DNA of 64,000 nt from a bacterium (GCA_021791415.1 JAJYWQ010000064.1:91446-155445), one strand, 5' to 3'; counted from the stretch's first letter, positions 15,451 to 39,942 are shown. Translations and numbers: made by a program. Notes: generated by a model from the sequence alone, not told the origin.

Positions 15451-15993
15451 TCACCCGGTGAGCGGCTGGGGCGTCAAGAGGGTGGCCACGTACCAGCGCC
15501 CGCCGAGTTCTTGGCAGACGATCTCGGAGGAGAGACCCAGCGGCTCGTGACTCAGGAGCTCGCAGGTGTAAGGGGCCCTGGAGGTCCTCCGGTAGCACAC
15601 CTCCAGCGCCACCTCGACCTGGGCCGTGGCCCCCTGAACGCTGGTCGGGCCGATCGAGGGGGAGACCAAGCGCACCCGGTCCCGGCGCAGGGCGCCGAGC
15701 ATGGCTGCGGCACTCTGGCGGTCCTTGGGGGCGAGGTACGACTCGAGGCCGGCCTGGGAGCCAGCAGCCGCGGCCTTGAGGTAGCCGGCGACGGCGGCCT
15801 GCGGCGACGCGTGGGAGGGGGCGGGCGCCGGGTGGGACACCACCAGCCGGAGGACGGCCAGCAGGCCCAGGCCCCCAAGCGCCAGCCCCGTGAACCTCCA
15901 GTTGGCCCGCGGGGTGGGAGGCCGCAAGTAGGGCATCTGGGAGGGCTGGACCGGGAGCTCCCGGCGCTCCTCGAAGGGGGGCATGCTGCTCAT
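15451..15993 (-). CDS. Hypothetical membrane-anchored protein
   Basis: ORF with an N-terminal TM segment and non-degenerate composition. No recognisable family. Confidence 0.45.
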   Translation of the reverse strand: MSSMPPFEERRELPVQPSQMPYLRPPTPRANWRFTGLALGGLGLLAVLRLVVSHPAPAPSHASPQAAVAGYLKAAAAGSQAGLESYLAPKDRQSAAAMLGALRRDRVRLVSPSIGPTSVQGATAQVEVALEVCYRRTSRAPYTCELLSHEPLGLSSEIVCQELGGRWYVATLLTPQPLTG

Positions 15994-16245
15994 TCGAGTC
16001 TCCTAGCGTGGCAGGTCCACAGGTGGGATGTCAGCTGCGCCGAGGCGCCGGCGCCCCGGGTGGCGGCACCCAGCCCGCATGCCCGGCCACCGCGCCCCCG
16101 GTCGACTCCAGTGGAGCTGGGGAAACCAAACCGCTCCGGTGGGCGTTGCAGAGATGGGCGCGGCGCGTGAAGTGCGCCTCCCCCGCCTGGCCGGCCCCGG
16201 CACGAAGCCGGGGACCCTGGCCCCGCGCCGCGCCCAACCGACATC

Positions 16246-18384
16246 ATGCGTGAACTGAATCCCGAGTCCCGCCAGCAACCGCGCCGGGGCCGTCGGCGTG
16301 GCGGCGCCTCGGCTCGCCACAGCCGGCAGGTCATAGGCCTGGCACTCCTGGCCATGCTGGTGGCGGTGGTTGCGCTGGCGGTGCCCACGACGGCGCTGGC
16401 CCGTGCCTACAGCTCGCTTCCGCCTGCCCGGCAGCTGCCCACGGACACCCTGGTGTACGGCCAGGGCAACCAGGTGGTGGCAGACCTCCATCCCCCCGGT
16501 ACCAGCCGGATCCCGGTGCCGCTGAACCAGATCGCGCCGGCAATGCAGAAAGCGGTGGTCGCCATCGAGGACCACAGCTTCTGGACGGCTCCCAGCTTCG
16601 ATGTCGGACGGATAGTCGAGGCGGGCATCTACGACCTGCTTCATCACAGCGCCGCCCAGGGCGCCAGCACCATCCCGGAGCAGGTGGCCAAACTCCTCTA
16701 CCTCACAGACAACAAGTCGATCACCTACAAGGTCAAGGAGATCCTCTACGGCAACGAGCTCACCTCGCACCTCACCCGCAGCCAGATCCTGGACGCCTAC
16801 CTGAATGACGTCTACTTCGGACAGGGAGCGACCGGGGTCCAGGCCGCCGCCGAGACCTACTTCGGGGTGAGCGCGGCCCAGCTCACCCTCCCCGAGGCCA
16901 CCCTGCTCGCCGGCCTCCTGCCAGCACCCTCCTACCTCGACCCCTTCAGCAACATGGCGGGGGCCCGCCTCCGCCAGCAGGCCGTTGTGGCCGCCATGGT
17001 CAAATACGGAGCACTGCCAGCCCGACAGGCTGCCGGGGTGCTGGCCAAGCCGCCCGCCCTCGGCTCGGGCAGCGAAGCCCAGGTCGACAACGCGCCCTAC
17101 TTCGTCGACCAGGTGCGGGTCTGGCTGCAGCAGCACTTCGGCTCTGGGTACGCCACCATGGGACTTCGCGTCTACACCAGCCTCAACGTGGCCCTGAACG
17201 AGAGGGCGCAACAGCTGGTGACGGCCGACATCGCCCGACACCAGGCGATGCACATGACCGACGGCGCGCTGGTGGCTGAGGATCCCGCCACCGGGCAGAT
17301 CGAGGTCTGGGTCGGCGGTGCCGGGCCCAACGTGCCGGGAGGGCAGATCGACATGGCGGCGGTGCCCCGACAGCCGGGGTCGACCTTCAAGCTCTTCACA
17401 TATTCCACCGCCATCGCGGACCACAAGGTCACCATGACCACCCCGGTCCTGGACAGTCCCTACAGCCTTCCCACCGGCGGGCCCGGCGGGGGGCCGTTCG
17501 TGGTGCACGACTATGAGGGGACCTATGCCGGGGTGGTGCCCATCCAGGTGGCACTGGGAAATTCGCTCAACGTGCCGGCCGTCCGCGTCGAACTCGCCAC
17601 CGGCATCCCGCAGATCCTGTCAACCGCCCGGGCGATGGGGGTGACCACCCTCAACGGGCCTGACTCCTCGTACGGGCCGAGCATGACGCTCGGGGCCTAT
17701 CCAGTTCCCCTCTGGGAGATGGCCCAGGCAGGGTCGGTGTTCGCCTCTCAGGGAGTGCTGCACCCGGCCCACCTCGTGAACTCGGTGGAGAGCCAGACGG
17801 GGCAGGTCCTGTACCAGGCTCCGACCGCCGCCACCCAGGTTCTGCCCCCCCAGGTCGCCTACATCATGAACACCATCCTGTCCCGTAATTCCAACCGGCT
17901 CCTGGCCTTCGGGCCAGACACCCCCCTGATCCTGCGGGGGCACACGGCGGCCGTGAAAACCGGGACCTCCAACAGCTATCGGGACAACCTGGCAGTCGGC
18001 TGGACGCCGCAGTTGGTGGGGGCAGACTGGGTCGGAAACGCCAACGACGCCCCTATGTACGGGGGCGGGCTGAACGGCATCAGTGGTGCCGCTTCGCTCT
18101 GGAACCAGTTCATGGAGGCCGCCCTGGCGGGAGCTCCCAACCGGTGGTACACGCCTCCGCAGGGGCTGGTCAGCCGGACCGTGGACGGTGAGGTCGACTA
18201 CTACCTGCCGGGGACGGGGCCGTCGACCAAGGTGCTCGGTGGTGGGACCTTGACCCCGTCACCGACTCCTACGCCGACCCCGGTCGTCACGCCCAGCCCG
18301 ACCCCGACCCCCCCAGCGTCCCCCTCTCCGCCCGCTCCGCCGTCGCCTTCGGGATCCCCCCAGGCCCCCGGTCCCGGGGGCTGA
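16246..18384 (+). CDS. Class A penicillin-binding protein (glycosyltransferase + transpeptidase) with a Pro/Thr/Ser-rich C-terminal tail
   Basis: GT51 'AIEDHSFW'. Transpeptidase motifs 'GSTFKLF' (SxxK), 'GNSLNV' (SxN) and 'VKTGTS' (KTG). N-terminal TM anchor. Confidence 0.85.
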   Translation: MRELNPESRQQPRRGRRRGGASARHSRQVIGLALLAMLVAVVALAVPTTALARAYSSLPPARQLPTDTLVYGQGNQVVADLHPPGTSRIPVPLNQIAPAMQKAVVAIEDHSFWTAPSFDVGRIVEAGIYDLLHHSAAQGASTIPEQVAKLLYLTDNKSITYKVKEILYGNELTSHLTRSQILDAYLNDVYFGQGATGVQAAAETYFGVSAAQLTLPEATLLAGLLPAPSYLDPFSNMAGARLRQQAVVAAMVKYGALPARQAAGVLAKPPALGSGSEAQVDNAPYFVDQVRVWLQQHFGSGYATMGLRVYTSLNVALNERAQQLVTADIARHQAMHMTDGALVAEDPATGQIEVWVGGAGPNVPGGQIDMAAVPRQPGSTFKLFTYSTAIADHKVTMTTPVLDSPYSLPTGGPGGGPFVVHDYEGTYAGVVPIQVALGNSLNVPAVRVELATGIPQILSTARAMGVTTLNGPDSSYGPSMTLGAYPVPLWEMAQAGSVFASQGVLHPAHLVNSVESQTGQVLYQAPTAATQVLPPQVAYIMNTILSRNSNRLLAFGPDTPLILRGHTAAVKTGTSNSYRDNLAVGWTPQLVGADWVGNANDAPMYGGGLNGISGAASLWNQFMEAALAGAPNRWYTPPQGLVSRTVDGEVDYYLPGTGPSTKVLGGGTLTPSPTPTPTPVVTPSPTPTPPASPSPPAPPSPSGSPQAPGPGG

Positions 18385-18396: not shown

Positions 18397-18870
18397 TCAG
18401 GCGGTGGCGGCCTCGACGGTGGACAGGGCCCGCCGCCGGTCCGGCCGGGATTCGCGCAGGGGGGTGGTGGCCGCCAGGGCGTCCCCCACGGCCGATAGGA
18501 GCTGCCCGGAGCGGAACGGCTTCAAGAGGAAGGTGAACCCGCCCTCCTGCAGTGTGTCGCGCTGCTCCGGCTCAGGCGGGCGCGAACTGGTGAAGATCAC
18601 CGGGGTCCAGCTCCAACCCGGAGCTGAGAGCAGCCGACGGCAGAGGTCGAAAGCCCCGGCCTCGGAGATGTTCAGGTCAAGGATGGCGCAGGAGTAGGGA
18701 CCGGAGCGGGCCTGGGCGAGGGCCGAGCGCGGCGACTCCGCCTCAGCCACCTCGAATCCCAGCCGGCGCAAGATCGCTGCGGTGGCGGTGCGGGACCGGA
18801 GGTCACGGTCAGCGACCAGGATGGTCCTCGCCCCCTGGTGACGGGTGGGGACGAGGGCGGAACGGGGCAT
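18397..18870 (-). CDS. Single-domain response regulator (receiver only)
   Basis: 'ILVADRDL...ILDLNISEAG...LLKPF' is a CheY-like receiver. Start taken at the internal ATG (MPRSALV). The upstream part of the ORF is a Pro-rich artefact. Confidence 0.6.
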   Translation of the reverse strand: MPRSALVPTRHQGARTILVADRDLRSRTATAAILRRLGFEVAEAESPRSALAQARSGPYSCAILDLNISEAGAFDLCRRLLSAPGWSWTPVIFTSSRPPEPEQRDTLQEGGFTFLLKPFRSGQLLSAVGDALAATTPLRESRPDRRRALSTVEAATA

Positions 18871-18901: not shown

Positions 18902-18944
18902 CTTGTGCAAGTTCCTGAAGCAGTCCGGCAAATTCCTGTAACGG
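18902..18944. promoter_or_regulatory. Locally AT-richer patch with imperfect direct repeat (AGTTCCTGAAG ... AATTCCTGTAA), upstream of the T4SS-like operon
   Basis: Stands out against ~70% GC flanks. Lies in the 150-bp divergent intergenic region between the response-regulator gene and the virD4-like gene. Confidence 0.2.
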
Positions 18945-19022: not shown

Positions 19023-20576
19023 GTGGAGAAGAGGCAGGAGGAGCTGCTCTGGCTGCTGGCCCCGGCCGCGGTGGTGGGCACGGCGGTGGTGGCCTCCGCG
19101 CTCCGCGGGGGGGCCCTGGGGGGGCCACCTACCGGGCCACGGCTGGCCGGCCTGGGAGCGGCCCTGGGGGTGGTCGTGACGATCGGGGCCCTCACCTGGG
19201 TGAGTCGGCCACGCACCTCCCTCCGCCCCGGATCGCTGGGGGGAGCGCGCACCGCCCGGCTTCTCGAGCTCCGTCGGCTCTGGCACGGTGGGAAGGCACG
19301 GGTCCGGTTGGGACGGGTCGGGCCGGTGATCGTCCGCCTGCCGGAGGATGAGCACCTGCTGGTGCTAGGCCCCACCGGGTCGGGCAAGTCCAGCTCGCTG
19401 GCGATTCCCGCGATCCTGGAGTGGCCCGGCCCGGTGGTGGTCACCGACCCGAAGGGGGAGCTGCTGGCCCGGACCCTGGCGGCGCGGGAGCGGCGGGGCC
19501 CAGCCGCAGTCTTCGCTCCCCTCATGGAGCCCGGGGACGGCTGGAACCCGGTGAGCTCCATCACCAGCTCGGACGACGCCCTGCGCAGCGCTGGCTTCCT
19601 GCTCGGCCGTCCGCCGGACCGCGAGCCCTTCTGGCACGACCTGGCGCTTCAGCTGCTGCACGGGCTGCTGGTGGAGGCCGCCAGCGCCGGCCTCACCCTG
19701 AGTGACATCCTCGCCCTCCTTCAGCAGGTCCCGGCCGAGGAGGTGGCCGAGGAGCTCAGTCACCCGCTGGCCCGGCAGCTGGTCCAGGGTGCCCTGAGCG
19801 GCGGGGACCGGACCGCCATGGGCGTCGTCGCCACCCTGGTGTCCAAATTGGGGGTGTTCGGCAGCGATCAGGTGGCGCACACCACGGCCCGGAGCACCTT
19901 CGATCCACGCTGGCTGGCGAGTGGCCGGTTGAACAGCCTCTACTGCGTGGTCAGCCCCACTGACGCCCCGCTGGTGCGGGGGCTGCTGAGCGCCCTGCTG
20001 TCCGCCTGCTGGCGGGCGGTGTACGCCAGTCCGCCGCCGCTCCCGGTGCTCTTCGTCCTGGACGAGTTCGCTCAGCTGACGGCCCTGCCCGAGCTGCCCT
20101 CGCTGGTGCAGCTGGGCCGCACCCAGGGGGTGCGGATGGTGCTTCTGGCCCAGGACCTCGCCTCGATCTCGGCCCTGTACGGGGCGGAGGCGGTGACCGC
20201 CCTCTGGGCCAACTGCCGGACCAAACTCCTTCTCCCCGGCATCTCGGAGGTGGATCTGCTGGAACGCGCCAGCCGGCTGGTGGGCTCCGCCACCCTGCAC
20301 TCCGCGGAAGGTGGCCACCCGTTGCAGGCCCATCCGTACCTGCCTCCGGACGGGATCAGGCGGCTGCGGCAAGGGCGCGCCCTGATCCTCCGTGCGAGCG
20401 ACCATCCGGCACTGGTACGCCAGCTTCCCTGGTACTCCGACCGCCGGATGCGGGCGGCTGCCGCCGCCGGCACCCCTGACGAGCGCTTGCCCAGAGCGGC
20501 GACGGGACGCCCCATCACCATCGCACAGGGGCCCCGGCCGATCGCCTGGGCGCAGCCACGAGGTGGGGCCCGTTGA
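19023..20576 (+). CDS. Type IV secretion coupling protein (VirD4/TraG family ATPase)
   Basis: N-terminal TM helices. Walker A 'LVLGPTGSGKSSSLAIP'. 'VVTDPKGEL' motif. Walker B 'VLFVLDEFAQL'. 'GRTQGVRMVLLAQDLASI' is the TraG/VirD4 C-terminal hallmark. GTG start. Confidence 0.8.
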   Translation: MEKRQEELLWLLAPAAVVGTAVVASALRGGALGGPPTGPRLAGLGAALGVVVTIGALTWVSRPRTSLRPGSLGGARTARLLELRRLWHGGKARVRLGRVGPVIVRLPEDEHLLVLGPTGSGKSSSLAIPAILEWPGPVVVTDPKGELLARTLAARERRGPAAVFAPLMEPGDGWNPVSSITSSDDALRSAGFLLGRPPDREPFWHDLALQLLHGLLVEAASAGLTLSDILALLQQVPAEEVAEELSHPLARQLVQGALSGGDRTAMGVVATLVSKLGVFGSDQVAHTTARSTFDPRWLASGRLNSLYCVVSPTDAPLVRGLLSALLSACWRAVYASPPPLPVLFVLDEFAQLTALPELPSLVQLGRTQGVRMVLLAQDLASISALYGAEAVTALWANCRTKLLLPGISEVDLLERASRLVGSATLHSAEGGHPLQAHPYLPPDGIRRLRQGRALILRASDHPALVRQLPWYSDRRMRAAAAAGTPDERLPRAATGRPITIAQGPRPIAWAQPRGGAR

Positions 20577-20860
20577 CCGAGCTGACAACCTTTGCGACCG
20601 GCCTGAACAACCTCATCCACACGGTGACCACCCTGGCCCTGGGGGCGGTGGCGGTCCTTTGCCTCAGCTTCGCGGCGATCCGCTACATGACCTCACTCGA
20701 CAACAGCCAGCGCCGGGCGGCCGCCATCCAGGGTCTGGTGACCGTCCTCCTGGGCGTTCTCCTGCTGGTGAACGAGGGGGCCATCCTGACCTTCGTCGAG
20801 GGGCTGACCGGCAGCAACACCGCCTGCGCGACCGCAACCTGTTCGGCGAGCGGCCCCTGA
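20573..20860 (+). CDS. Small two-TM membrane protein, TrbC/VirB2 pilin-like (set A)
   Basis: 95 aa with two hydrophobic helices. TTG start overlaps the virD4-like stop (TTGA). A paralogous gene sits at 39943. The assignment is by architecture and context only. Confidence 0.5.
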   Translation: MTELTTFATGLNNLIHTVTTLALGAVAVLCLSFAAIRYMTSLDNSQRRAAAIQGLVTVLLGVLLLVNEGAILTFVEGLTGSNTACATATCSASGP

Positions 20861-20880
20861 GGAGGCGTTCCGCGGCTGCG

Positions 20881-22989
20881 GTGGTCCTTGCCGGACACCT
20901 GCTCTCGGCGGGGACCGCCGCGGCGCCCACGGCACAGCCCACCCCGCCCCCCAGCGCGGCGGCCGCCTCAGCGGGGAGCGACAGCCAGCAGTGCGGCGGG
21001 ATCACCGACCCCTTCTGCTACGTCATCGATGCGTTCGTCTCAGGGCCGGTGGCCATCATGGGCAGCCTCGACGGAAGTCCCGACCCGGCCCACGTCGACC
21101 CCCTGACTGGGGCGGTGACCTCGGGCCCGTGGCACCTGATCACCACTCTCGTGGGCACCAACCCGGTGGTGGACAACTACGACGGGAGCCTCGGCGAGCC
21201 GGCTCATGAGTGCGGGTCATCCGGCTGCATCCCCTGGGTCCAGGAGATGAACGCCGTCCTCGAGCCGCTGTCCCTGGCACTCATCGTGATCGCCTTCGCG
21301 CTCCAGGTGTCGCTCTTCATGGCCGGACAGCAGCTCAACCTCAGGTCGGGCATCGTGCCCTGCCTGATCGCCGCCGCGGTCCTCGGGGCGGGACTTCCGC
21401 TGCACCTCGCTGGCCGCGTCATCGACATGGGGAGCTGGGTGTCCCAGGGGATCCTGGGGGCCACCTTCCACCGGCTGGGGGGCGCCGGCGCCGCCCCGCT
21501 GGACATGATGACCGTCCTCGCCATCACCGCCTACTGCCCGGAGGACAGTCCCATCATCCACCCGGGCATCCACCTCTCCCTGCCCGGCCCGAGCCCGCGC
21601 CAGCAGGTCCTGGTGGATCCCTGGATGGACCGGTCATTCAAGCAGTCTCACTGCATCGGGGCGTCCAGCCCAGACTTCACCAAGGAGGTCCTGGACCGCA
21701 GCGAGAACTTCTTCGGCCCCCCCCTCCACGACGCCAACTGCGACCGCGGAGACGCATCCCCCGGTCAGCCCCTCTGCACCAACACCGACAACCAAGTCAA
21801 CAACAACCAGGGCCAGAACTGCCTGGAGGGCAGCGGCGGGTCCACCGTTGGGGCGCTCCAATTGGGGGTGCTGCCGCTGCCGGGCGAGCCTCGGGCGGGT
21901 GACGGGCAGAGCCCGGCCGACTGTCGCTACGCGGACATCTATTGGGGCACGGTGCCCACCTTCACCGATGTCTGGGCGGGAGTTGGCCCCCATGGGCGCA
22001 ACGGCTACGACGTCCCCGACGGGCTCATGGGGATGGTGGCGTTCACCGCCCTCACCGGGCTCGGCCTGTGGCTGGCGCTGACCTACCTGGCCCGCTTCAT
22101 CGTCCTCTCCCTCCTCGCGGCCTGCTCCAGCCTGGCCTTCGTGGCGCTGGCGCTGCCCGGAGGGCGGACCCTCTTCAACCGCTACTGGGCCACGATCGGA
22201 GCCCTCTCCGCGGTAGTTGTGGTCCAGACCCTGATCTTCCTGGCCTTCGTGGCGGTGGTCTCCACCGTCTCCGGCCTGGCCCCCGTGGCCGCGCACGGAT
22301 CCTGCCCCTTCATCTCCCCGACCTCCCGTACGGGCTGCGCCGCGGCTCAGGGCGGACTCCTGGCCGAAGTGGGCAGTGGCAACCCCGGGGACCAGTTCGC
22401 CAAGTGCCTGCTGGCGGCCGTGACAGTCTTCCTCATGGTGGAGGTGCCGGGCCGCATCAGCCGGGGCGAGATGTCCACAACCCGCCGGGTCCGCGCCCTG
22501 GCCGAGCTGTCTGCAGGGACCGTGCTTGGCGGCTCCCTGCTGGCGGCCAGCGGCACCCTGCCCCAGGCCCGGCGCTACGGCTCCCGCTGGGGTGGGCAGG
22601 CCGCCCACGCCCTGGGGCTGCCCGGGCGACCGGAGGAGGACCTCGCCAGAAGGCTCGAAAGTGCGGTGCCCGGGGCGGGCGCCCGGTGGCCGACTGTGGT
22701 CGGACGGGAGTCGAGAGAGCAGTTTCTCGGTCGCCAGCTGCTGCGGGACGGAAGCCGTCAGCAGGAGCTCGGCAGGCTGACCAGCTTCAGCCCGGACGAT
22801 CTGGCGGCGATCAGGGCGCTGCCCGAGGGGACGGAGCTGGCGGAGGCACTCCGCGCCCTTGGGGCCCAGTACGCGGCCGCCGGAGGTCCCGCGGTCCACA
22901 GCCTGGACGTGGCCTACCTCAATGCCCTGCGGCGCGGCAGACTTCGGCCCCAGCCGGGCCCCCCGCGGGACCAAGCGAGGCGAGCATGA
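20881..22989 (+). CDS. Polytopic membrane protein, VirB6/TrbL-like (set A), with a Cys-rich extracytoplasmic domain
   Basis: Roughly 7 TM helices. Hydrophilic Cys-rich loops. Sits between the pilin-like and VirB3-like genes. The start is uncertain: a possible non-canonical start near 20857 would give a signal-peptide-like 'RRRSAAAVVLAGHLLSAGTAAAP'. The upstream part of track ORF 20392..22989 is an artefact. Confidence 0.5.
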   Translation: MVLAGHLLSAGTAAAPTAQPTPPPSAAAASAGSDSQQCGGITDPFCYVIDAFVSGPVAIMGSLDGSPDPAHVDPLTGAVTSGPWHLITTLVGTNPVVDNYDGSLGEPAHECGSSGCIPWVQEMNAVLEPLSLALIVIAFALQVSLFMAGQQLNLRSGIVPCLIAAAVLGAGLPLHLAGRVIDMGSWVSQGILGATFHRLGGAGAAPLDMMTVLAITAYCPEDSPIIHPGIHLSLPGPSPRQQVLVDPWMDRSFKQSHCIGASSPDFTKEVLDRSENFFGPPLHDANCDRGDASPGQPLCTNTDNQVNNNQGQNCLEGSGGSTVGALQLGVLPLPGEPRAGDGQSPADCRYADIYWGTVPTFTDVWAGVGPHGRNGYDVPDGLMGMVAFTALTGLGLWLALTYLARFIVLSLLAACSSLAFVALALPGGRTLFNRYWATIGALSAVVVVQTLIFLAFVAVVSTVSGLAPVAAHGSCPFISPTSRTGCAAAQGGLLAEVGSGNPGDQFAKCLLAAVTVFLMVEVPGRISRGEMSTTRRVRALAELSAGTVLGGSLLAASGTLPQARRYGSRWGGQAAHALGLPGRPEEDLARRLESAVPGAGARWPTVVGRESREQFLGRQLLRDGSRQQELGRLTSFSPDDLAAIRALPEGTELAEALRALGAQYAAAGGPAVHSLDVAYLNALRRGRLRPQPGPPRDQARRA

Positions 22990-23360
22990 CGGACGCCGAG
23001 GTACCCCAGCCGATCTCCGACGTGCCCAGCCGGTGGGGAGGGCTGACCACGCCCCAGCTGGGCTGGCTCGGCGGTGCGGCCGCACTGCCGATGATCCTGG
23101 TCCACGCGCATTGCGGTCTGGCAGCGACTGTCACCGGGGCGGTGCCGTGGGCGGCCGGCTGTGTCGTGCTGGGCTTCGGCAGCTGCCGGGGCCGCCGGCT
23201 CGATGCCTACCTTCTTGACGCGGCGCGCTTCCGGACCCAGCGACGGCGGCTGTGCCACCCGGACGTGTCGGCGTCGCCCCAGGAGTTCCGCGCCGTGGAC
23301 GGCTCGGAGCGCTGGCCCCTGGCCTGGAACGTGCCCTCAGGAGCCCCGGCCGAGCGATGA
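22986..23360 (+). CDS. Small membrane protein, VirB3/TcpE/PrgI-like (set A)
   Basis: 125 aa with a two-TM hairpin ('LGWLGGAAALPMIL...AGCVVLGF'). ATGA overlaps with both the upstream and downstream genes. Immediately precedes VirB4, the canonical VirB3 position. Paralogous to the ORF at 36657. Confidence 0.5.
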   Translation: MTDAEVPQPISDVPSRWGGLTTPQLGWLGGAAALPMILVHAHCGLAATVTGAVPWAAGCVVLGFGSCRGRRLDAYLLDAARFRTQRRRLCHPDVSASPQEFRAVDGSERWPLAWNVPSGAPAER

Positions 23361-25558
23361 GGTTTCCCCCGCGCTCGGGATCAACCCTGGACCTCATCGA
23401 CCTCGCCTACCTGGAGGGCGGCGTTGTTCGCCTCCGGGACGGGCGCCACCGGGTGGGGCTGGAGCTGGCAGCCCTCAACCTTCTGCTGCGGTCCAGCGCC
23501 GAGCGGCAGCTGATCTGGAGGCGCTACTGGCGGGCGCTCTCGACCCTCTCGGGGCCCGTCTCCCTCTACTGCTTCTCCCGGCCCCTGTCCCCCTCCACCC
23601 AGCCGGCGGCCACCGCCAATGGGCGCCTGGACGCCGAGTACTCGGCATCACTTCTGGCCAGTGGCCAGGTCCACCTCCGTCACCACCTGGCTGTGATCTG
23701 GGACGACTCCTCCGCGAGCCTGCGGGGGGCCCTGCCAGGGAGACTCCGCCGAGGAGGAGCCCTTGACCTGGACCAGCGCCGGAGAGCCGTTGCGGCGGCA
23801 TTGGCCGGCCCTGGGCTGCGTCCCCGTCCCCTCGAGGACGGGGATTGGCTGCGCCTGCTGCAGGAGCTGACAGGTGGGCGGAGTGGACGGCCCACCGCCA
23901 GCTTCGCCAGCTGGGTGGCGCCAGAGACAGCCACGGTGAGGCCGGACCGGCTGGAGCTCTCGGACCGGGTGGCCCGCAGCCTGGTCGTGCGCGGCTTCCC
24001 CCGCCGTCTGCAGCTCGGCTGGCTAGCCCCTCTGGTCCTGGCCGCCCCTGGCCCGCTCCGGATGGCTCAGCACCTGTACCCGGTGCCCAAGGTGCACAGC
24101 CTGAGCCATCTGCGCCGGCGTATCCGCACCTTCGAGACCGGGCTGGAGGTGGACCGGCGCCAGGGTCGGCGCCCGGATGCCGGCACCCGGGCAGCACTCG
24201 AGGACGCCCTGGCCCTCGAGGAGCGGGTCCTTTTGGAGGAGGACCACCTGATGCGGCTGGTGACCTGCGTCACGGTGGAGGGGTCCAGCACGGCGGAGAT
24301 GGAGCTGGGGTGGGAGCAGGTGGTCAACACCCTCATCGAGCTTGGATGCACCCCGGTTCCGCTGTTCAACCGCCAGGCGGACGGGTGGCGGGCAACGCTG
24401 CCGCTCGGTGTGGACCCCCTCGGCTGGTCCCGGGACATGACGGCGGCAGCCACCGCCACCGCCATCCCGTTCCTGCGGGCGACCCTGGATGTGAGGAACG
24501 GGGTGCTGCTGGGGCCCAGCCCCAGCACGAGGGAGCTGGTGACCGTCGATCCCCTGGCCAGCTCCAACCCCAACCGCAACGTCCTGGTCCTGGGGACCTC
24601 CGGCGGTGGCAAATCCTTCACCTCCAAGTTGCTCGCTGCCCGCCTCTTCCTCCAGGGGTGCCGGCTCCGCTGCCTGGACCCCGCGGGGGAATACCTGAAG
24701 CTGGGGGCACTTCTCGGAGCGCGCTGCCTGGACCTGGGCGCGACCGGCGAGCCCGGCCTCAATGTTCTCGGTCCACCTGGCCAGGAGCCCGAGGGGCGGG
24801 TGGAGCGGGCCATGCCTCTGCTGACGCGGCTGCTGGGGTCGAGCCGGTCGGCCGCCGCGCGGGCCTCCCTGGAGGCCATCGGGCTGGCCGCTCTGACCGC
24901 CCTGCGGCTCCAGCCCGCTGAAGCTGGCCTCGCTGAGGTCTTGGAGCAACTGGAGGCGTCGGGCCAGGGGGAGCTCGCAGCCGGTCTGCGGCGGCGGGCT
25001 GCCGGCCCTGGTGCCGGCGTCTTCCAGGGCGCAGGCGGAGTCGGCGGCGATGACGCCCTGGTCATCTCCCTGCGCCACCTCCACGCCCGGGAGGAGCTCC
25101 TGGGGGCAGCCATGGAGCTGGTGCTCTGGCACCTCGAGGCAGACCTCGAGCACCCGCACTCCCGACCCACCCTGGTGGTCGTGGACGAGGCGGAGGTCCT
25201 GCTCTCCTCCCCATCGGGAGCGCGCTTCCTGGAGAGCATGGCCCGGCGGATCCGCAAACTGGGAGCCGGGCTGCTGGTGGTTTCCCAGGTGGTCGAGGAC
25301 TTCCTCAACTCTCCCGTGGGCAACGTGGTGATTCGCAACTGCCATACCAAGCTGCTGCTCCGCCAGGAGCCGGTGGCCCTTGCCGGGGTGCGGCGCGCCT
25401 TCTCGCTCTCCGAGGCGGAGTGCGAGCTCCTCCGAGATGCGGAGCCAGGGTGCGGGCTGGTGCTGGCGGGGGATGAGCATGCCAGCTTCCGAGGGGGAGC
25501 TCCTCAGGCTTGGTGGCCGGCCCTGACCACAGGTCAGCTGGCCGCGGGCTCCCCGTGA
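23357..25558 (+). CDS. VirB4/TrbE/TraC-family T4SS ATPase (set A)
   Basis: Walker A 'VLVLGTSGGGKSFTSKLL' followed by 'CLDPAGEY' (the DPxGE motif of VirB4). Walker B 'LVVVDEAEVLL'. 'LLVVSQ' motif. Confidence 0.85.
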   Translation: MRFPPRSGSTLDLIDLAYLEGGVVRLRDGRHRVGLELAALNLLLRSSAERQLIWRRYWRALSTLSGPVSLYCFSRPLSPSTQPAATANGRLDAEYSASLLASGQVHLRHHLAVIWDDSSASLRGALPGRLRRGGALDLDQRRRAVAAALAGPGLRPRPLEDGDWLRLLQELTGGRSGRPTASFASWVAPETATVRPDRLELSDRVARSLVVRGFPRRLQLGWLAPLVLAAPGPLRMAQHLYPVPKVHSLSHLRRRIRTFETGLEVDRRQGRRPDAGTRAALEDALALEERVLLEEDHLMRLVTCVTVEGSSTAEMELGWEQVVNTLIELGCTPVPLFNRQADGWRATLPLGVDPLGWSRDMTAAATATAIPFLRATLDVRNGVLLGPSPSTRELVTVDPLASSNPNRNVLVLGTSGGGKSFTSKLLAARLFLQGCRLRCLDPAGEYLKLGALLGARCLDLGATGEPGLNVLGPPGQEPEGRVERAMPLLTRLLGSSRSAAARASLEAIGLAALTALRLQPAEAGLAEVLEQLEASGQGELAAGLRRRAAGPGAGVFQGAGGVGGDDALVISLRHLHAREELLGAAMELVLWHLEADLEHPHSRPTLVVVDEAEVLLSSPSGARFLESMARRIRKLGAGLLVVSQVVEDFLNSPVGNVVIRNCHTKLLLRQEPVALAGVRRAFSLSEAECELLRDAEPGCGLVLAGDEHASFRGGAPQAWWPALTTGQLAAGSP

Positions 25559-26235
25559 ACCCCCGGCGCCTGCTGTCCGGCATGGGGCCCCTGCTGGCCC
25601 TGGGTTGCCTGGTCCCCGCGGTCCTTGGGGCCAGCCTCGTGGGGTTGCTGGGGGCCGGGGCAGCGGCCGCCGGGTGGCCCGCGCTGGGTGGCTTGCTCCC
25701 CGATCCTGGAGGGCTGGTCCTGCGGCCTGGAGAGGTGGTCCTGGCGAGCTCGCCCTCCTTCCCGGAGTGGGCGGCCCCGTGCGGCCCCGAGCCGGGAGCA
25801 CTGGCGGTCCAGCCCTCGGCCTGCACCGGACATCCTGAGCCGTTCCCGGCCAACTACCAGGGCTTCTCCACGGGTCAGTGCACCTGGTATGTGGCCACCC
25901 GCCGGCTGGTCACCTGGCACACCCCTCAGGGCCTCCTGGGCGGCAACGGGGGACAGTGGCTGGAGCTGGCTTCGGCGGCGGGCTATGCGGTCGGCGTCTC
26001 CCCGGAGCTGGGGGCCATCGCGGTCTACGGAGACCGCGGCCCTGGCCACGTGGCGTTCGTCGTCGGGGTGGGCGCCGACGGGTCGTACACGGTGGCGGAG
26101 TCCAACTGGGCGCTCCTCGGGCCCGTCCCGCCCTACGTGGACCTCAGGGGGGTCGCGGCCGGAGCTACCGGGAGCGCGACCGAGACACTCCTGGGGTTCG
26201 TCTACGGCCCCGCGGAGCTGCCGTCCCCATCCTGA
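25555..26235 (+). CDS. Secreted CHAP-domain peptidoglycan hydrolase (VirB1-like role)
   Basis: Signal-peptide-like N-terminus. CHAP Cys 'GQCTWYVATRR' and His 'GHVAFVVGV'. GTGA overlap with the virB4 stop. Confidence 0.75.
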   Translation: MNPRRLLSGMGPLLALGCLVPAVLGASLVGLLGAGAAAAGWPALGGLLPDPGGLVLRPGEVVLASSPSFPEWAAPCGPEPGALAVQPSACTGHPEPFPANYQGFSTGQCTWYVATRRLVTWHTPQGLLGGNGGQWLELASAAGYAVGVSPELGAIAVYGDRGPGHVAFVVGVGADGSYTVAESNWALLGPVPPYVDLRGVAAGATGSATETLLGFVYGPAELPSPS

Positions 26236-26254: not shown

Positions 26255-27508
26255 GTGGAGGCGGCTGCAGAACTGGGCACCGGGAGGCGGGCGCGGCGGC
26301 GCGCGCTGGGCCTTGTGGCCACGTCGCACGCCGGCCAGCACATGTACTCGGGTCTCCTACCCCTGACCTACCCGGCGATCCTGGTCGACTTCCACCTCAA
26401 CTACGCCACCTTGGGGCTGGCCGTCGGGGTGATCGGGGTGGTGGGCGGACTCACCCAGGCCAGCGCCGGGTACGTCGGCCAGCGGGTGGCGGCCCGTTGG
26501 ATCCTCGGCTGCCAGAACCTGGTCGTGGGGCTCTGCGCCATTCTCGGCGCGCTGGCCCCCACCTACCCCCTGTTTGCCACCGGTCAGGGGCTGGCGCTCC
26601 TGGGATCGAGCCAGCAGCACCCGGTGGGGAGTTCGGTGGCGGCCCGGGTGTACCCCGACCGCCGGGGAACCGCTCTCAGCGTCGCCACCATCGGGGGAAG
26701 CGTGGGCTCGCTGATAATCCCCATCCCGGCGGCCCTGCTCATCGCCAATCTGGGCTGGAGACCGACCCTCCTCATCCTGGCCATCCCCCTCTTCCTGCTC
26801 GGACTCCTCCTGCTCCTCACCTTTCCCGCGGTCCCCGGCGATCGAGGCAAGGGTGTCCCCCGGCCGAGCCTGCGTCCCCACCTGCCGAGGATCCGGCGCG
26901 ACCAGCTGGTCGACCCCCGGGTGGCGATCTTCGGGGTTGCCGCCGCGACGATCGCCGCTGGTGGTCGTGGGCTGGGGACTCTCAACGCCTTCATCCCCCT
27001 CTACCTGCGCAACGGAGTCCACCTCCCCGAGGCCACGGTGGGGGTGGTCTTCAACGTGGTCCTGGTGGGGGCGGTGCTGGGACCGATCCTGGGCGGGCCG
27101 CTCTCGGACCGGCTCGGACGCATCCCCGTGCTGTGGGGCGCGTACGCGCTGTCGGCGGTCGCCGTCCTGGCCTTTGGGCTCGCTTCGTCGCTGCCACTTG
27201 CCGGCCTGGCGGCACTGGCCCTGATCGTGGGGCTGGTGGCGTATGTTGAGAACCCGCTGCTCCAGGCCCTGGTGAGCGACAGCATCGCCACCTCCGCCCA
27301 GGCTGGGATGTTCGGCTTCTACTTCGCGCTCTCGTACGGAGTCGGGTCGCTCTGGATCGTGGCCATCGGCCAGGTCATCCAGCACCTCGGCTTCTCCGCC
27401 GGCTTCGGCGTGATGGCCGGCTCGTACGTGGGAGCGGGCCTGCTCCTGATCCCCTGTGTTGGAAGGACTCGGAGCCGCCCGTCCGCCGGCGGCCAGGCCG
27501 CCAGGTGA
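26255..27508 (+). CDS. MFS transporter
   Basis: 12-TM architecture with typical MFS loops. Start set at an in-frame GTG. The upstream part of track ORF 25625..27508 is an artefact. Confidence 0.75.
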   Translation: MEAAAELGTGRRARRRALGLVATSHAGQHMYSGLLPLTYPAILVDFHLNYATLGLAVGVIGVVGGLTQASAGYVGQRVAARWILGCQNLVVGLCAILGALAPTYPLFATGQGLALLGSSQQHPVGSSVAARVYPDRRGTALSVATIGGSVGSLIIPIPAALLIANLGWRPTLLILAIPLFLLGLLLLLTFPAVPGDRGKGVPRPSLRPHLPRIRRDQLVDPRVAIFGVAAATIAAGGRGLGTLNAFIPLYLRNGVHLPEATVGVVFNVVLVGAVLGPILGGPLSDRLGRIPVLWGAYALSAVAVLAFGLASSLPLAGLAALALIVGLVAYVENPLLQALVSDSIATSAQAGMFGFYFALSYGVGSLWIVAIGQVIQHLGFSAGFGVMAGSYVGAGLLLIPCVGRTRSRPSAGGQAAR

Positions 27509-28464: not shown

Positions 28465-29328
28465 CCGGTGGGCCCCGGCGCCGGAGGCGCCGACCAGCCA
28501 GCCGCCCGCGATCGCTCCCGCCGCCAGGACCGGGAGCACGAACGGGTACTGCCCGGGACGACGCTCGGCCTCCAAGAGGACGCGGTCGACGGCCAGCAGC
28601 CCAAGCCCCGCGCCCGCACCCCGCAGGGCCCATGCCCGAGCCGCACCGGGCGAGCTCAAAACGCTCAGCGCCGCCGCTCCCGTTAGGGTCGCGTGAGCTC
28701 CGAGGCGGCTCCCCCGCACCCCCAGCAGCACAGGCAGGCTCCTGCGCCCGGCCGCCCGGTCCCGGGCGGCGTCCGGCCCCCCGTTGGCGAGGTGCAGCGC
28801 CAGCCCCATCAGGCCGGCCATCGCCATCAGGAGCCGGGGACGTACAGGCGGCAGACCCAGCGCCGCCGGTCCCAGCAGCGGCACCGTCCCGATGCCGACC
28901 GCGAAGGGGGCCCAGGAGAGCGGCGTGCGGCGAAGCCAGAGGTCGTATGACCAGCCGCTGGTCAGCCCCAGCGCCATGACCCGAAACGCCCGGCGTCCCG
29001 CCAGCGCGGCCACCAGAAGCGAGCCGGCGCCGGTGCCGAGGGCGAAGGCCAGGACGGCCCGCCGGGTCACCTCGCCACGGGGGATCGGCTTGTAGGGCTG
29101 GTGGATCAGATCGGCCCGATGATCGGCGACGTCGTTCAGAGATCCGGTGCTGACCTGGGCCAGGGCCATCGCCAGCGCCGCCAGGAATGCCGGAGTGCGG
29201 GGTCCATCACCTCCCTCGGCACGGGTCGCGGCCCACCCGGAGAGGGCTGTGAACGCGGTGCAGGCCAGAGATGGGCCCAGGTGGGCTGCGGCGACCCAGC
29301 CCCTCAGAGACCGGCTCCGATTTGGCAT
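28462..29328 (-). CDS. UbiA-family prenyltransferase
   Basis: 'NDVADHRAD' (NDxxDxxxD) motif and multi-TM architecture. Confidence 0.75.
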   Translation of the reverse strand: MPNRSRSLRGWVAAAHLGPSLACTAFTALSGWAATRAEGGDGPRTPAFLAALAMALAQVSTGSLNDVADHRADLIHQPYKPIPRGEVTRRAVLAFALGTGAGSLLVAALAGRRAFRVMALGLTSGWSYDLWLRRTPLSWAPFAVGIGTVPLLGPAALGLPPVRPRLLMAMAGLMGLALHLANGGPDAARDRAAGRRSLPVLLGVRGSRLGAHATLTGAAALSVLSSPGAARAWALRGAGAGLGLLAVDRVLLEAERRPGQYPFVLPVLAAGAIAGGWLVGASGAGAHR

Positions 29329-29360
29329 GCTCCCATGATGGTGGACCAAATGGGCGAGCT

Positions 29361-30416
29361 GTGAGGGGCGGGCGGGCGCGGCTCCTGGCCGCGGTGCGAC
29401 GAGAGCAGGTCGACGCCACCCCGGTGTGGTTCATGCGCCAGGCAGGCCGGTCCCTGCCTCAATACCGGGAGCTGCGGCGGCGCTGGGGGCTGATGGAGAT
29501 GGTGCACCAGCCGGAGCTCTGCGCCGAGGTCACCTGCATGCCCGTGGAGCTCCTGGGCGTCGACGCCGCCGTCCTGTTCGCCGACATCATGCTCCCCCTG
29601 GAGGGGATGGGCGTGCCCTTCGAGCTTCGGGAAGAGGTGGGCCCCTGGGTGAATGACCCTGTTCGCAGCGCCGCGCAGGTGAGGGCGCTGCGGAGCCCCG
29701 CGGTCGGGGAGGCCTACCCCTTCCTCCTGGAGGGCATCCGCATCGCCCGGGAGCGGCTTGGAGAGCGGGCGGGCCTGATCGGCTTCGGGCCGTCTCCGTT
29801 CACCCTCGCCTGCTACCTGGTCGAGGGCCATGGCAGCCGCGACTACCCGGCGCTCCGTGGGCTCCTGCGCGGGGAGCCCGAGCTGTTGGCGCAGCTTCTG
29901 GGCACCCTCACCGACCACCTGGGCGACTACCTGTTGGCCCAAGCGGAGGCCGGCTGCGAAGTCGTCCAGGTCTTCGACAGCTGGGTCGGGGTCCTGGACG
30001 AGAGGGCGTTCCGGGAACACCTCCTGCCCCACCTGCGGCGCCTCTTCGACCGGCTTCGGGGGAGGGTGCCCGCCATCTACTTCTCCACCGCCTCGACCCA
30101 TCTCCTGCCCGCCTTCTCCGACCTGGGCGCTGCCGGGATCTCCGTGGACTGGCGCGTGCCGCTGGACACCGCCTGGGACACCGTGGGCGCGGACCACTTC
30201 CTGCAGGGCAATCTGGACCCGGCAGCGTTGCTGGCTCCGTGGGAGCGCCTGCGGCCGCTGGCCGCAGACGTCCTGGCCCGGGCGCGGGGGCGGCGGGGCC
30301 ACGTTTTCAACCTCGGCCACGGCGTCCTGCCCGAGACCGAGCCGGCCCAGCTGCGGCGGCTGGTGGAGTACGTCCACGAGTTCGGTGGGCGGGAGGGCCG
30401 CCCGCTGCCAACTTGA
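29361..30416 (+). CDS. hemE: Uroporphyrinogen decarboxylase
   Basis: 'PVWFMRQAGRSLPQY' signature. GTG start. Confidence 0.85.
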   Translation: MRGGRARLLAAVRREQVDATPVWFMRQAGRSLPQYRELRRRWGLMEMVHQPELCAEVTCMPVELLGVDAAVLFADIMLPLEGMGVPFELREEVGPWVNDPVRSAAQVRALRSPAVGEAYPFLLEGIRIARERLGERAGLIGFGPSPFTLACYLVEGHGSRDYPALRGLLRGEPELLAQLLGTLTDHLGDYLLAQAEAGCEVVQVFDSWVGVLDERAFREHLLPHLRRLFDRLRGRVPAIYFSTASTHLLPAFSDLGAAGISVDWRVPLDTAWDTVGADHFLQGNLDPAALLAPWERLRPLAADVLARARGRRGHVFNLGHGVLPETEPAQLRRLVEYVHEFGGREGRPLPT

Positions 30417-30478: not shown

Positions 30479-31435
30479 ATGCGCGGAGCCCAAGCCATTG
30501 GGCGCGTCTCGATTGCTGTGGCAATGGCCGGGTTGGTCTGGGTCTCCGCCGTGCTGGGACCAGGTCCGAACACCAGGGCCCAGCAGGGACTCGCCGGTGA
30601 CCAGGCCCAACTGACCCAGCTTCTGAACCAGCTCCGAGCCCAGGGCGACCTGGCGTCTCAGAGCCAGGTGATGGCGCTCCTGACCCAGATTGAGTCGGAG
30701 CAGGGCTACTTGAAGCAGCTGAACGCCAAGCTGGCTGCGGATCAGGCGACCTCGGCGACCCTGCAGCGGCAGATGGCGGGTGATCAGATCGCCCTCACCA
30801 ACCTGGTGTCCACCGCCTACGTGGACGGCAGCGGCAGCCAGCAGGTGGCGGAGGCGCTGGCCGCACCCAACCTCGGCCAGTTCCTCGCCAGCACCGCCCT
30901 GCCGTCGGCGGTGGCATCCCAGGTCGCCCAGTTGGTGGAGACCATCAAGCACGACCAGCAGGTGGTGGCCACGGCCGCAGCGCAACTGCAGGTCGACGAG
31001 AGCCAGGCGATGGTAGCCCAGGCGCAGCTGGGGCAGCGCTCCCAGCAGCTCCTGGCCGAGCTGACAACGCCCCAGCCGGCCATCGGCACCGGAAGCTGGT
31101 CCTTCGCCTTCGGTGACTGCACCTGGTGGGTCGCCAGCCAGAGGAAGGTCACCTGGGGCGGCAACGCCTACCAGTGGTGGGCCAACGCCGCGGCTGCCGG
31201 ATACGCCGAGGGCCAGACTCCCGAGGTGGGGTCGATCGTGGTGTGGGGCATGGACGTGCCCGGAGAGAGCTGGGGGTACGGCCACGTGGCGTACGTGGTG
31301 GCGGTCAAGCCGGGGTCCTTCGAGGTCTCGGAGATGAACTTCTACGGCGTCCCGGGGGGCGGGTGGGATCGAGTCGACTACAGATGGATTCAGGATGGCG
31401 CAGGGTACCTGGGTTTCATATACGGCCCCGCTTGA
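30479..31435 (+). CDS. Secreted coiled-coil + CHAP-domain cell-wall hydrolase (PcsB/RipA-like architecture)
   Basis: Signal peptide. Long Q/A-rich coiled coil. C-terminal CHAP domain ('GDCTWWVASQRK', 'GHVAYVVAV'). GGGAGGA RBS upstream of ATG 30479. Confidence 0.75.
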   Translation: MRGAQAIGRVSIAVAMAGLVWVSAVLGPGPNTRAQQGLAGDQAQLTQLLNQLRAQGDLASQSQVMALLTQIESEQGYLKQLNAKLAADQATSATLQRQMAGDQIALTNLVSTAYVDGSGSQQVAEALAAPNLGQFLASTALPSAVASQVAQLVETIKHDQQVVATAAAQLQVDESQAMVAQAQLGQRSQQLLAELTTPQPAIGTGSWSFAFGDCTWWVASQRKVTWGGNAYQWWANAAAAGYAEGQTPEVGSIVVWGMDVPGESWGYGHVAYVVAVKPGSFEVSEMNFYGVPGGGWDRVDYRWIQDGAGYLGFIYGPA

Positions 31436-34560: not shown

Positions 34561-34591
34561 GACACCAGGCGGACCTTCCGGGCCAGGGCTG

Positions 34592-35218: not shown

Positions 35219-35225
35219 GAAGGAC

Positions 35226-35633: not shown

Positions 35634-35698
35634 TCGGCGGCCGAAGGACGGCGTGCTAGGCTGGGAGTCCCCCGGCGCCCACGTGAGAGAAGGAAGCC

Positions 35699-36136: not shown

Positions 36137-36147
36137 GCCCCGACCGG

Positions 36148-36504: not shown

Positions 36505-36656
36505 GCCCACCGCCGGCCGGACGGCGGACGTTGGTGTGCGGCGATGGGAGTGGGCAGCTCCGGGGAGCTCGAAGGCGATGGCGAGACCGGGGGACCGGGC
36601 GCGGGCCGGCCGGGTGGGCCGTGATCCTGGCTCCAGACGGTGGGCGTGAGGAGCCG

Positions 36657-38800: not shown

Positions 38801-38809
38801 AATCGCCCC

Positions 38810-39406: not shown

Positions 39407-39408
39407 CC

Positions 39409-39879: not shown

Positions 39880-39942
39880 GGGGCCAGGCCCGGGGCGCCG
39901 CCGGACCTAAGTGAGGATCGGCGGCAAGCGCGGAGGAACCCC

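Follow-up and report, generated by a model that had tools for sequence, protein, structure and literature searches.

The DNA analysed here, 64,000 nucleotides of a bacterial assembly (GCA_021791415.1, JAJYWQ010000064.1:91446-155445; hereafter the window), carries at positions 19023-26235 an operon of six genes, set A, that resembles a type IV secretion system (T4SS) of monoderm bacteria. Genes were called from frame plots of third-position GC (GC3) together with lists of open reading frames (ORFs), with one coding frame accepted per position; because the G+C content of the window is about 72%, the raw ORF lists were crowded with spurious frames. All six genes lie on the + strand, and identical gene models were obtained on a near-identical public contig (L004) that was called independently.

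The operon begins with A1 (19023-20576), which encodes a VirD4/TraG-type coupling protein (T4CP) of 517 aa. It is followed by A2 (20573-20860), a two-helix membrane protein of 95 aa and candidate VirB2-like pilin; A3 (20881-22989), a polytopic membrane protein of 702 aa and candidate "extended VirB6" channel subunit; A4 (22986-23360), a small PrgI/VirB3-like membrane protein of 124 aa; A5 (23357-25558), a VirB4-family ATPase of 733 aa; and A6 (25555-26235), a membrane-anchored CHAP peptidoglycan hydrolase of 226 aa. A first-pass annotation of the same DNA had described six co-directional, translationally coupled genes. The common direction was confirmed, and coupling is supported at four of the five junctions by 4-nt start/stop overlaps (TTGA at A1/A2, ATGA at A3/A4 and again where the A4 stop meets the VirB4 start, GTGA at A5/A6), while A2 and A3 are separated by a 20-nt gap (20861-20880) with a GGAGG overlapping the A2 stop codon. 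Some boundaries were also corrected: the VirB4 start moved from the longest-ORF position 23252 to an ATG at 23357, the CHAP start is a GTG at 25555, and a long ORF previously drawn at 20392-22989 is coding from 20881 onward only.

Components of the set A operon

The two ATPases match VirD4 and VirB4 profiles, as the first-pass annotation had expected, in Pfam and NCBIfam as well as in the PDB. A1 matched T4SS-DNA_transf (PF02534; 7.6e-40, 137.6 bits against a cut-off of 20.1), TrwB_AAD_bind (PF10412; 2.4e-27) and TraG-D_C (PF12696; 8.5e-20), and among PDB sequences TrwB (5.2e-12). Its best NCBIfam match, to the CD1115 family (6e-34), falls below threshold at 117.7 bits against a cut-off of 250. 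Two transmembrane helices form its N-terminus. The DPKGE, LDEF and GRTQG motifs singled out earlier were all located in A1; Walker A, DPKGE, the Walker B sequence LDEF and GR[ST]QG are each present in 23 of 23 homologues. A5 combines the N-terminal and ATPase domains of VirB4 in one fused protein. It matched P-loop_TraG (1.8e-11) and AAA_10 (6.6e-10) in Pfam, and its family profile recovered the C-terminal domain of Thermoanaerobacter VirB4 from the PDB (4AG5; 5.7e-40). In NCBIfam the best match was again below cut-off (CD1110 family, 7.8e-46, 156.7 bits against 325); TIGR00929 VirB4_CagE also matched (4.5e-14). The Walker A motif GTSG[GA]GKS is found in 27 of 27 homologues and the Walker B motif VDEAE in 26 of 27, and several homologues are named "VirB4 family type IV secretion system protein" by NCBI.

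A6 matched the Pfam CHAP family at 4.6e-16, and its catalytic GQCTWY motif is present in all 25 homologues compared. The protein carries an N-terminal hydrophobic segment and occupies the position of PrgK, directly after VirB4; by analogy, it may play a VirB1-type role.

The labels of the three other components, described earlier as pilin-like, VirB6-like and VirB3-like, depend on sub-threshold or profile-profile evidence and not on family-level matches. The best Pfam match of A2 is T4SS_pilin (2.3e-5, 24.8 bits against a gathering cut-off of 26.6). This profile (PF18895) matched all 12 A2 family members, at best with 8.8e-6 and under the gathering cut-off, and TrbC/VirB2 matched three of the 12. 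The best NCBIfam match was Mbov_0395, a "pilin-like conjugal transfer protein" of a Mycoplasma integrative and conjugative element (ICE; 7.5e-5), and phmmer matched A2 to the T4SS_pilin of an actinobacterial conjugative cluster (2e-4). A2 has the topology of VirB2-type pilins, a pair of hydrophobic helices with a basic loop between them, and ends in a short tail with two invariant cysteines; a signal peptide is not evident. A single-sequence AlphaFold2 model is a helical hairpin with a predicted local distance difference test (pLDDT) score of 73. Foldseek searches with this hairpin returned generic coiled coils and no pilin in the top 50, a non-specific result that says nothing either way.

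A3 has no sequence match in Pfam, NCBIfam or the PDB. Hydropathy and alignment indicate a polytopic protein with cysteine-rich extracytoplasmic domains, in which many cysteines are invariant, and a helical cytoplasmic C-terminal domain. Homologues, in 57 clusters, were found in Dormibacteria only. When profiles were compared with hhalign, the transmembrane core of A3 aligned with the TrbL_4 protein of a second module in the window, set B (60% probability, E 8.7e-5), and, more strongly, with a large polytopic protein whose gene precedes PrgI in the T4SS loci of Patescibacteria (84%, E 8e-6, over 99 transmembrane-core columns). Its place in the operon corresponds to PrgH in the pCF10 order PrgH-PrgI-PrgJ-PrgK. 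AlphaFold2, given an alignment of 32 Dormibacteria sequences, yielded a low-quality model of A3 (mean pLDDT 48.9), and Foldseek gave no PDB hit with E below 2.8. We consider A3 a candidate "extended VirB6-like" channel subunit.

The Pfam match of A4 to PrgI (3.6e-5, 24.7 bits) lies under the cut-off of 27. However, a hidden Markov model (HMM) of the A4 family recovers the PrgI genes located directly upstream of VirB4 in Patescibacteria loci, and phmmer matched A4 to a PrgI-family protein of an Embleya plasmid. A VirB8-like subunit (PrgL/TcpC/TraM) was sought by phmmer with PrgL in the window and in related loci, with no match, and no such Pfam hit was obtained. One local protein considered as a VirB8 analogue was hyp180, a conserved 180-aa bitopic membrane protein (15451-16002, - strand) whose gene separates fumC from PBP1a in every related locus; PDB and Pfam profiles did not support this (DUF4878 at 0.026 in one of 10 members), and the idea was rejected. 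The earlier description of set A as the minimal core of a monoderm T4SS needs qualifying on two counts: these searches turned up no VirB8-like component, and the operon includes a VirB2-like pilin candidate, which is unusual among Gram-positive systems.

A fixed chromosomal locus and its neighbourhood

The window belongs to an uncultured soil bacterium of the phylum Candidatus Dormibacterota. Homologues of the set A VirB4 (VirB4-A) at 46-100% identity all come from metagenome-assembled genomes (MAGs) of this phylum. A genome scan limited to one genome per GTDB species yielded 24 Dormibacterota genomes with the locus (L005-L028; L081 is a second contig of one of these), including a 2.49-Mb chromosome (OY969577.1) and a 2.39-Mb contig. 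In all 24 the operon sits between the same housekeeping genes. The shared order is fumC, hyp180(-), PBP1a, response regulator(-), A1-A6, (MFS), hyp245(-), UbiA(-), hemE, CHAP, SLT, M20, MR_MLE, B1, B2, B3, and it holds in every sufficiently long locus, even at 39% VirB4 identity. In the window, the flanking genes are those named in the first-pass annotation, with Pfam placing PBP1a at 16246-18384, MFS at 26324-27508 and hemE at 29253-30416. Two of the loci, labelled "Micrarchaeaceae archaeon" (L024) and "Verrucomicrobiia" (L026), show full Dormibacterota synteny and are probably mis-binned or mislabelled.

Between the window and 16 distant genomes, median identities of the T4SS proteins were 84% for A2, 67% for A6, 66% for A3, 62% for A1, 47% for A5 and 44% for A4, compared with 66% for fumC, 65% for PBP1a, 59% for hemE and 49% for UbiA. 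Conservation of set A is thus comparable with that of its housekeeping neighbours, and A2, the most conserved protein of the locus, exceeds all flanks compared. Substitution rates were determined between the window and two close relatives. The ratio of nonsynonymous to synonymous rates (dN/dS) was 0.02-0.29 for A1-A6 (0.16-0.19 for A1 and 0.02-0.07 for A2), against 0.09-0.16 for PBP1a and hemE, and the synonymous rate (dS, 0.27-0.47) was the same for T4SS and flanking genes. Conserved synteny, purifying selection and intact catalytic motifs together lead us to conclude that set A is an old, vertically inherited core locus.

Pfam searches over essentially all GC3-supported ORFs of the window returned housekeeping functions besides the T4SS genes, including acetyl-CoA synthetase, fumarase, PBP1a, hemE, UbiA, IspH, Dtd, MoxR, MreB and RodA-PBP2, and no relaxase, integrase or replication gene. 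Similarly, when two Replic_Relax proteins and the relaxase of pCF10 served as phmmer queries, no six-frame ORF matched, either in the window or in about 30 related loci. No att-like repeats surround the operon, the direct repeats there being short, imperfect and at chance level; the sole tRNA of the window lies at 53967, 28 kb from the operon; and the GC content shows no shift (0.71-0.73 inside the operon against 0.69-0.75 outside). The first-pass annotation had noted the same lack of mobility genes and att-like repeats and the same match in GC content, and had read the locus as a resident chromosomal apparatus rather than the remnant of an ICE or plasmid, a view that the synteny and substitution rates now support. 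The opposite view, that the locus is an ICE or a decaying plasmid or ICE remnant whose genes are selfish or degenerating and do not serve the host, could draw on the fact that the best family matches of the components are conjugation proteins (CD1115, CD1110, PrgI and Mbov_0395) and that, in neighbour-joining (NJ) trees, some of the nearest VirB4 relatives come from conjugative clusters of actinobacteria that carry Replic_Relax. Yet the insertion context does not change across 24 species-level genomes whose VirB4 identity ranges over 39-89%, the genes on either side have the same dS as set A, dN/dS is low with motifs intact in homologues, and neither mobility genes nor an att repeat, an adjacent tRNA or a GC shift were found. 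We regard this explanation as effectively refuted. As a separate observation, the cumulative GC skew of the window reaches a minimum at about 23-30 kb and then rises, and the genes at 29-41 kb all lie on the + strand; since the window holds no dnaA or dnaN, the minimum is not read as an origin.

Upstream of A1 and divergent from the operon lies a gene for a stand-alone response-regulator receiver protein (18397-18861, - strand; Pfam Response_reg, 2.5e-15), found at the same position in all Dormibacterota loci spanning that site. It is a possible regulator of the operon. The 161-bp intergenic region between this gene and the VirD4 gene contains a 13-bp direct repeat in two copies 21 bp apart (18909-18942, + strand; AAGTTCCTGAAGC and AAATTCCTGTAAC, also given as AARTTCCTGWARC). 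The repeat has exactly two exact matches in the whole window, lies in an AT-richer block and is conserved when the window is aligned with L005-L009. The block is confined to the close clade L004-L009 and does not occur in more distant genomes. The pair is a putative operator or promoter element. A scan for promoters and terminators found nothing, and such a scan is not informative in Dormibacterota.

Genes for wall enzymes are found on both sides of the operon. About 4 kb past set A, after hemE, a CHAP gene (30479-31435; Pfam CHAP, 4.5e-17) encoding a protein with a coiled coil overlaps an SLT lytic transglycosylase gene (31395-32021; 2.9e-10), both on the + strand. The position of this pair is conserved in related loci, and in one of them (L003, 16339-17964) the two are fused as a single 541-aa protein. 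CHAP and SLT form the domain pair of Gram-positive VirB1-like hydrolases (PMC12102498). The pair is a probable second, two-domain VirB1-like hydrolase and may act together with set A. Further away, a third CHAP-domain protein of 394 aa is encoded at 50281-51465 (+), with a similar CHAP protein downstream of set B in L083, and a 1021-aa RodA-PBP2 fusion with FtsW/RodA/SpoVE, PBP dimerisation and transpeptidase domains (59771-62836, - strand) adjoins mreB (58675-59760).

Set B, a second and paralogous T4SS-like module, occupies 34553-41091 on the + strand, with housekeeping genes scattered through it. It opens with genes for three small soluble proteins (34553-35218, 35193-35633 and 35687-36136), which are followed by FolB, an 85-aa protein with two transmembrane segments and no Pfam hit (36657-36914) whose gene overlaps the start of VirB4b, and VirB4b itself (36896-38800), whose ATPase domain shares 34% identity with that of VirB4-A. 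The module is completed by a protein of 201 aa, Dtd, a pilin-like protein of 79 aa with two transmembrane segments (39943-40182) and a TrbL_4/VirB6-like protein (40195-41091). Set B has no coupling protein. Other Dormibacteria keep its gene order, with a protein of about 300 aa encoded ahead of VirB4b. A third VirB4 paralogue, of 870 aa, was found outside the window in a Dormibacteria MAG (GCA_054639755.1; L087, 8667-13311), preceded by a 445-aa TrbL/VirB6-like protein (PF04610, 9.9e-5), followed by an M23 peptidase and surrounded by housekeeping genes; in NJ trees it groups with the actinobacterial relatives of VirB4-A. An earlier suggestion that this third module lies just left of the window, based on a shared acetyl-CoA synthetase neighbour, was withdrawn because the gene orientation does not fit.

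Relatives of the set A machinery

An exhaustive search of 1.84 billion representative sequences with the VirB4-A HMM recovered three in-family clusters at 1169, 813 and 729 bits, followed by a sharp fall to 386 bits and a long tail. The top matches outside the family were from Patescibacteria (386 bits), then Actinomycetota, Colwellbacteria (Patescibacteria) and Candidatus Oleimmundimicrobium. Among 72,556 plasmids, the best match reached 161 bits over 59% of the query. NJ trees were built from 188 VirB4 sequences and 539 columns of the middle and ATPase domains, with Kimura distances or with Dayhoff-6 recoding. VirB4-A forms a clade of its own with bootstrap values of 98-100. In both trees its sister is an actinobacterial group, with weak support (33-45%). 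One member of that group, locus L088 from metagenome ERZ27272688, encodes a T4SS_pilin, a PrgI-like protein, VirB4, an SLT/M23 hydrolase, a T4CP and Replic_Relax, a conjugative layout that would fit a history in which a conjugative machine was captured and its relaxase later lost. A specific sister relationship of VirB4-A to Patescibacteria had been considered and was dropped, as the idea came from a pattern-biased genome scan and the NJ sister is weakly supported; the Patescibacteria link comes from the A3 profile comparison and the ranking of VirB4 scores only. We conclude that the VirB4-A lineage is isolated among monoderm-type VirB4s, with a sister that may lie either with actinobacterial conjugative systems or with Patescibacteria T4SS.

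The closest analogues of set A occur in Patescibacteria and in archaea. Patescibacteria have chromosomal, mostly relaxase-less, MPF_FATA-derived T4SS in which pilins of the VirB2-like kind are present and a clear VirB8 is missing (Quinonero-Coronel et al. 2025, PMC12102498). In Southlakia epibionticum this T4SS is essential for epibiotic growth (PMC12857230, PMC11665869). Both the Patescibacteria systems and set A are chromosomal monoderm-type T4SS with neither a linked relaxase nor a recognisable VirB8. Their cores consist of PrgI (PrgI-like in set A), VirB4 and a hydrolase; a large polytopic protein, in set A the VirB6-like candidate A3, is encoded ahead of PrgI, and each has a VirB2-like T4SS_pilin, again a candidate in set A. 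Both are conserved vertically across their phylum, and Patescibacteria have been reported as the sister lineage of Chloroflexota and Dormibacterota. The differences are also clear. VirB4 of set A is one fused protein, whereas the Patescibacteria and DPANN loci that we fetched have a separate TrsD-like gene for the N-domain. The T4CP heads the set A operon, whereas in Patescibacteria it is usually unlinked and in Southlakia it is non-essential. Set A has a single, extremely conserved pilin (84%), in contrast to Patescibacteria arrays of 2-11 divergent pilins, which average about 25% identity within arrays (PMC12102498). Dormibacterota genomes are 2.4-2.5 Mb in size and presumably belong to free-living cells, while Patescibacteria have sub-Mb epibiont genomes. 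Furthermore, a Patescibacteria locus that we examined adjoins dnaA, which does not occur in the set A window, and NJ trees do not group VirB4-A with Patescibacteria.

Several observations were made on the Patescibacteria and DPANN loci themselves (L029-L050, L052-L080). In most of them the VirB4 N-domain ORF is separate and directly upstream of the ATPase ORF, and in some the two ORFs share a frame with one stop codon between them, which matches the reported Patescibacteria "TrsD". The pilin HMM from Dormibacteria also matches small proteins encoded in several DPANN loci (E 2e-7 to 8e-4). In 12 Patescibacteria loci (L029, L033-L041, L043, L048), which represent at least two classes, a class A PBP homologous to PBP1a is encoded 5-10 kb downstream of VirB4, on the other strand; L039 has dnaA between VirB4 and the PBP, and in Dormibacterota PBP1a sits two genes upstream of the T4SS. 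Two loci labelled "Gammaproteobacteria" (L030, L031) hold Patescibacteria-like VirB4 loci and are probably mis-binned or mislabelled.

Among characterised Gram-positive systems, Prg/Pcf of pCF10 shares with set A the order VirB6-like, PrgI, VirB4 and hydrolase (PrgH-PrgI-PrgJ-PrgK), and neither has outer-membrane core genes. The MPF_FATA families CD1110 and CD1115 are the best NCBIfam matches of A5 and A1, with scores so far under the cut-offs that set A is not a member. Unlike pCF10 and CTn systems, set A has no PrgL/VirB8-like protein, relaxase, oriT or adhesins and is not on a mobile element; conversely, it has a VirB2-like pilin, which those systems do not. The actinobacterial clusters, represented by L088 and by an Embleya plasmid (NZ_CP108778.1, L086), also combine T4SS_pilin, a PrgI-like protein, VirB4, a hydrolase and a T4CP in high-GC monoderm hosts. 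They differ in their Replic_Relax protein, their location on plasmids or in variable regions and the position of the T4CP after the hydrolase. Moreover, their T4CP has no phmmer similarity to A1, and their large membrane protein matches TrbL_4 of set B and not A3.

Chromosomal, relaxase-less conjugation machinery built around a pilin, a VirB6-like and a VirB4-like protein is also known from archaea. The Ced and Ted systems of Sulfolobales and Thermoproteales are domesticated machines with a VirB2-like pilin, a VirB6-like channel, a VirB4-like ATPase and no relaxase, and they transfer cellular DNA (Beltran et al. 2023, PMC9905601). Set A resembles them in this organisation but falls outside the families themselves, with NCBIfam scores of 33 bits for CedD (2.2e-8) and 15 bits for CedB (0.008) against cut-offs of 600-700 bits. 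The archaeal systems have no VirD4-type T4CP, operate in an archaeal envelope and have been demonstrated to import DNA, whereas transport by set A is predicted. Other T4SS have been diverted to DNA uptake (Helicobacter ComB) or to Gram-positive protein export (Streptococcus suis 89K). ComB is a diderm system with no T4CP, 89K resides on a pathogenicity island of limited distribution, and neither is phylum-wide.

A proposed role for set A in Dormibacterota

Our proposal covers both the identity of set A and its likely mechanism and, taken as a whole, has a probability of roughly 0.55. In it, set A is a domesticated, chromosomally fixed and vertically inherited monoderm (MPF_FATA-like) T4SS that forms a core apparatus of Candidatus Dormibacterota. 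Its assembly, direction of transport and substrate we infer by analogy with known machines. The coupling ATPase A1 would pick a cytoplasmic macromolecule and feed it to the channel for export. The PrgI/VirB3-like A4 would tether VirB4 to the membrane beside A3, and together these proteins would make up the membrane translocon. On this VirB6-like platform, the VirB2-like A2 may build a conduit or short pilus, while A6 would open a passage through the peptidoglycan, probably assisted by the downstream CHAP and SLT pair. As for the substrate, we favour T4CP-dependent movement of DNA or protein from cell to cell. The tentative first choice, at somewhat less than even odds, is that one Dormibacteria cell hands cellular DNA or nucleoprotein to another, as a bacterial counterpart of the archaeal Ced/Ted domestication; protein effectors come second, and DNA uptake and other roles each seem unlikely. 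DNA is favoured because the closest characterised relatives move DNA, domestication has a precedent in archaea and the exposed parts of the machine are undiversified.

Several points weigh against this proposal. The assignments of the pilin, VirB3-like and VirB6-like proteins are sub-threshold, with a model pLDDT of 49 for A3, and a VirB8-like subunit was found neither in the window nor in related loci by phmmer with PrgL or by Pfam. A relaxase could be encoded elsewhere in the genome, since the scans covered about 64 kb here and 10 kb on either side of the locus in other genomes. All of the evidence is comparative, and every sequence comes from MAGs. The neighbourhood genes give no pointer to the substrate. 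Relaxase-less T4SS of Proteobacteria usually secrete proteins, which weighs against the preference for DNA. Finally, the T4CP is dispensable in Southlakia, host of the only experimentally probed relaxase-less monoderm T4SS, so that reasoning centred on the T4CP may not transfer to set A.

The main competing explanation, which we consider unlikely though deserving of attention, is a protein-effector T4SS in which A1 recruits protein cargo for release into the milieu or for injection into cells nearby, whether competitors, prey or partners. Protein export has been shown for Xanthomonas-type systems and for S. suis 89K. The presence of a T4CP where no relaxase was found is consistent with such a role, as are the best alignment of the A3 core, with the large polytopic protein of Patescibacteria (84%), and the origin of the top non-Dormibacteria VirB4 match in the same phylum (386 bits); for the Patescibacteria T4SS, effector delivery has been proposed, speculatively (PMC11665869). 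On the other hand, the conserved neighbourhood contains no candidate effector or immunity genes. Targeting of varied hosts would predict diversification of the exposed parts, yet the pilin and the A3 ectodomains are extremely conserved, and a single-copy pilin that is 84% identical across the phylum carries no arms-race signature. Dormibacterota genomes, at 2.4-2.5 Mb, likewise speak against this role, and members of the phylum are not known to be epibionts.

Two further roles appear less probable still. The layout of set A, a chromosomal and relaxase-less triad of pilin, VirB6-like protein and VirB4, is that of Ced/Ted (PMC9905601), and the NCBIfam matches to CedD (2.2e-8) and CedB (0.008), although weak and far below cut-offs, would also fit a competence system like Helicobacter ComB or archaeal Ced that imports environmental or donor DNA. 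We judge such uptake improbable. The characterised importers ComB and Ced operate with no VirD4-type coupling protein, whereas set A starts with an intact and conserved one that is translationally coupled to the pilin; the T4CP-less set B would be the better importer candidate. Alternatively, the machine may transport nothing and be retained for a VirB2-type filament or envelope structure involved in adhesion, aggregation or contact, or for wall remodelling with PBP1a. The pilin is indeed the most constrained gene, and wall enzymes abound around the locus (PBP1a, three CHAP proteins, SLT, a glucosaminidase and RodA-PBP2). However, VirB4 suffices for pilus biogenesis in known systems, so a T4CP would be unnecessary for a pilus alone, and here a coupling ATPase with invariant NTPase motifs has been kept at a dN/dS of 0.16-0.19. 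This last role is the least probable of those that would serve the cell.

If set A is a domesticated T4SS as proposed, the finding widens a narrow set of precedents. Chromosomal relaxase-less monoderm T4SS have so far been known essentially from Patescibacteria, and domesticated conjugation machinery for the transfer of cellular DNA has been reported in archaea only. According to a review of December 2025, Patescibacteria are the only group known to have VirB2-type pilins in a Gram-positive-type T4SS (PMC12857230). The literature that we searched contains no description of set A and links Dormibacterota with T4SS in a phylogenetic aside only. Set A would represent a second, independent-looking case. 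Its host phylum, sister to Patescibacteria, lives in soil and is presumably free-living, and the system has a single ultra-conserved pilin and a T4CP, with further VirB4 modules located among housekeeping genes.

A more speculative extension, which we hold to be a long shot, is that Dormibacterota have a phylum-wide and vertically inherited set of domesticated modules for exchanging chromosomal DNA between cells, with set A as the exporter and the T4CP-less set B, comprising VirB3-like, VirB4b, pilin-like and TrbL-like proteins, as a Ced/ComB-like importer. If true, this pair would be the first bacterial counterpart of archaeal Ced/Ted. Additionally, the set A machine might share a common ancestor with the essential T4SS of the sister phylum Patescibacteria, in which case the system of these Candidate Phyla Radiation bacteria would predate their epibiotic lifestyle and would not have been acquired from hosts. 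Set A bears directly on whether the Patescibacteria T4SS came horizontally or predates the split from other monoderm phyla, a question left by the Patescibacteria study, and it allows the function of such a machine to be studied in a lineage that is not parasitic.

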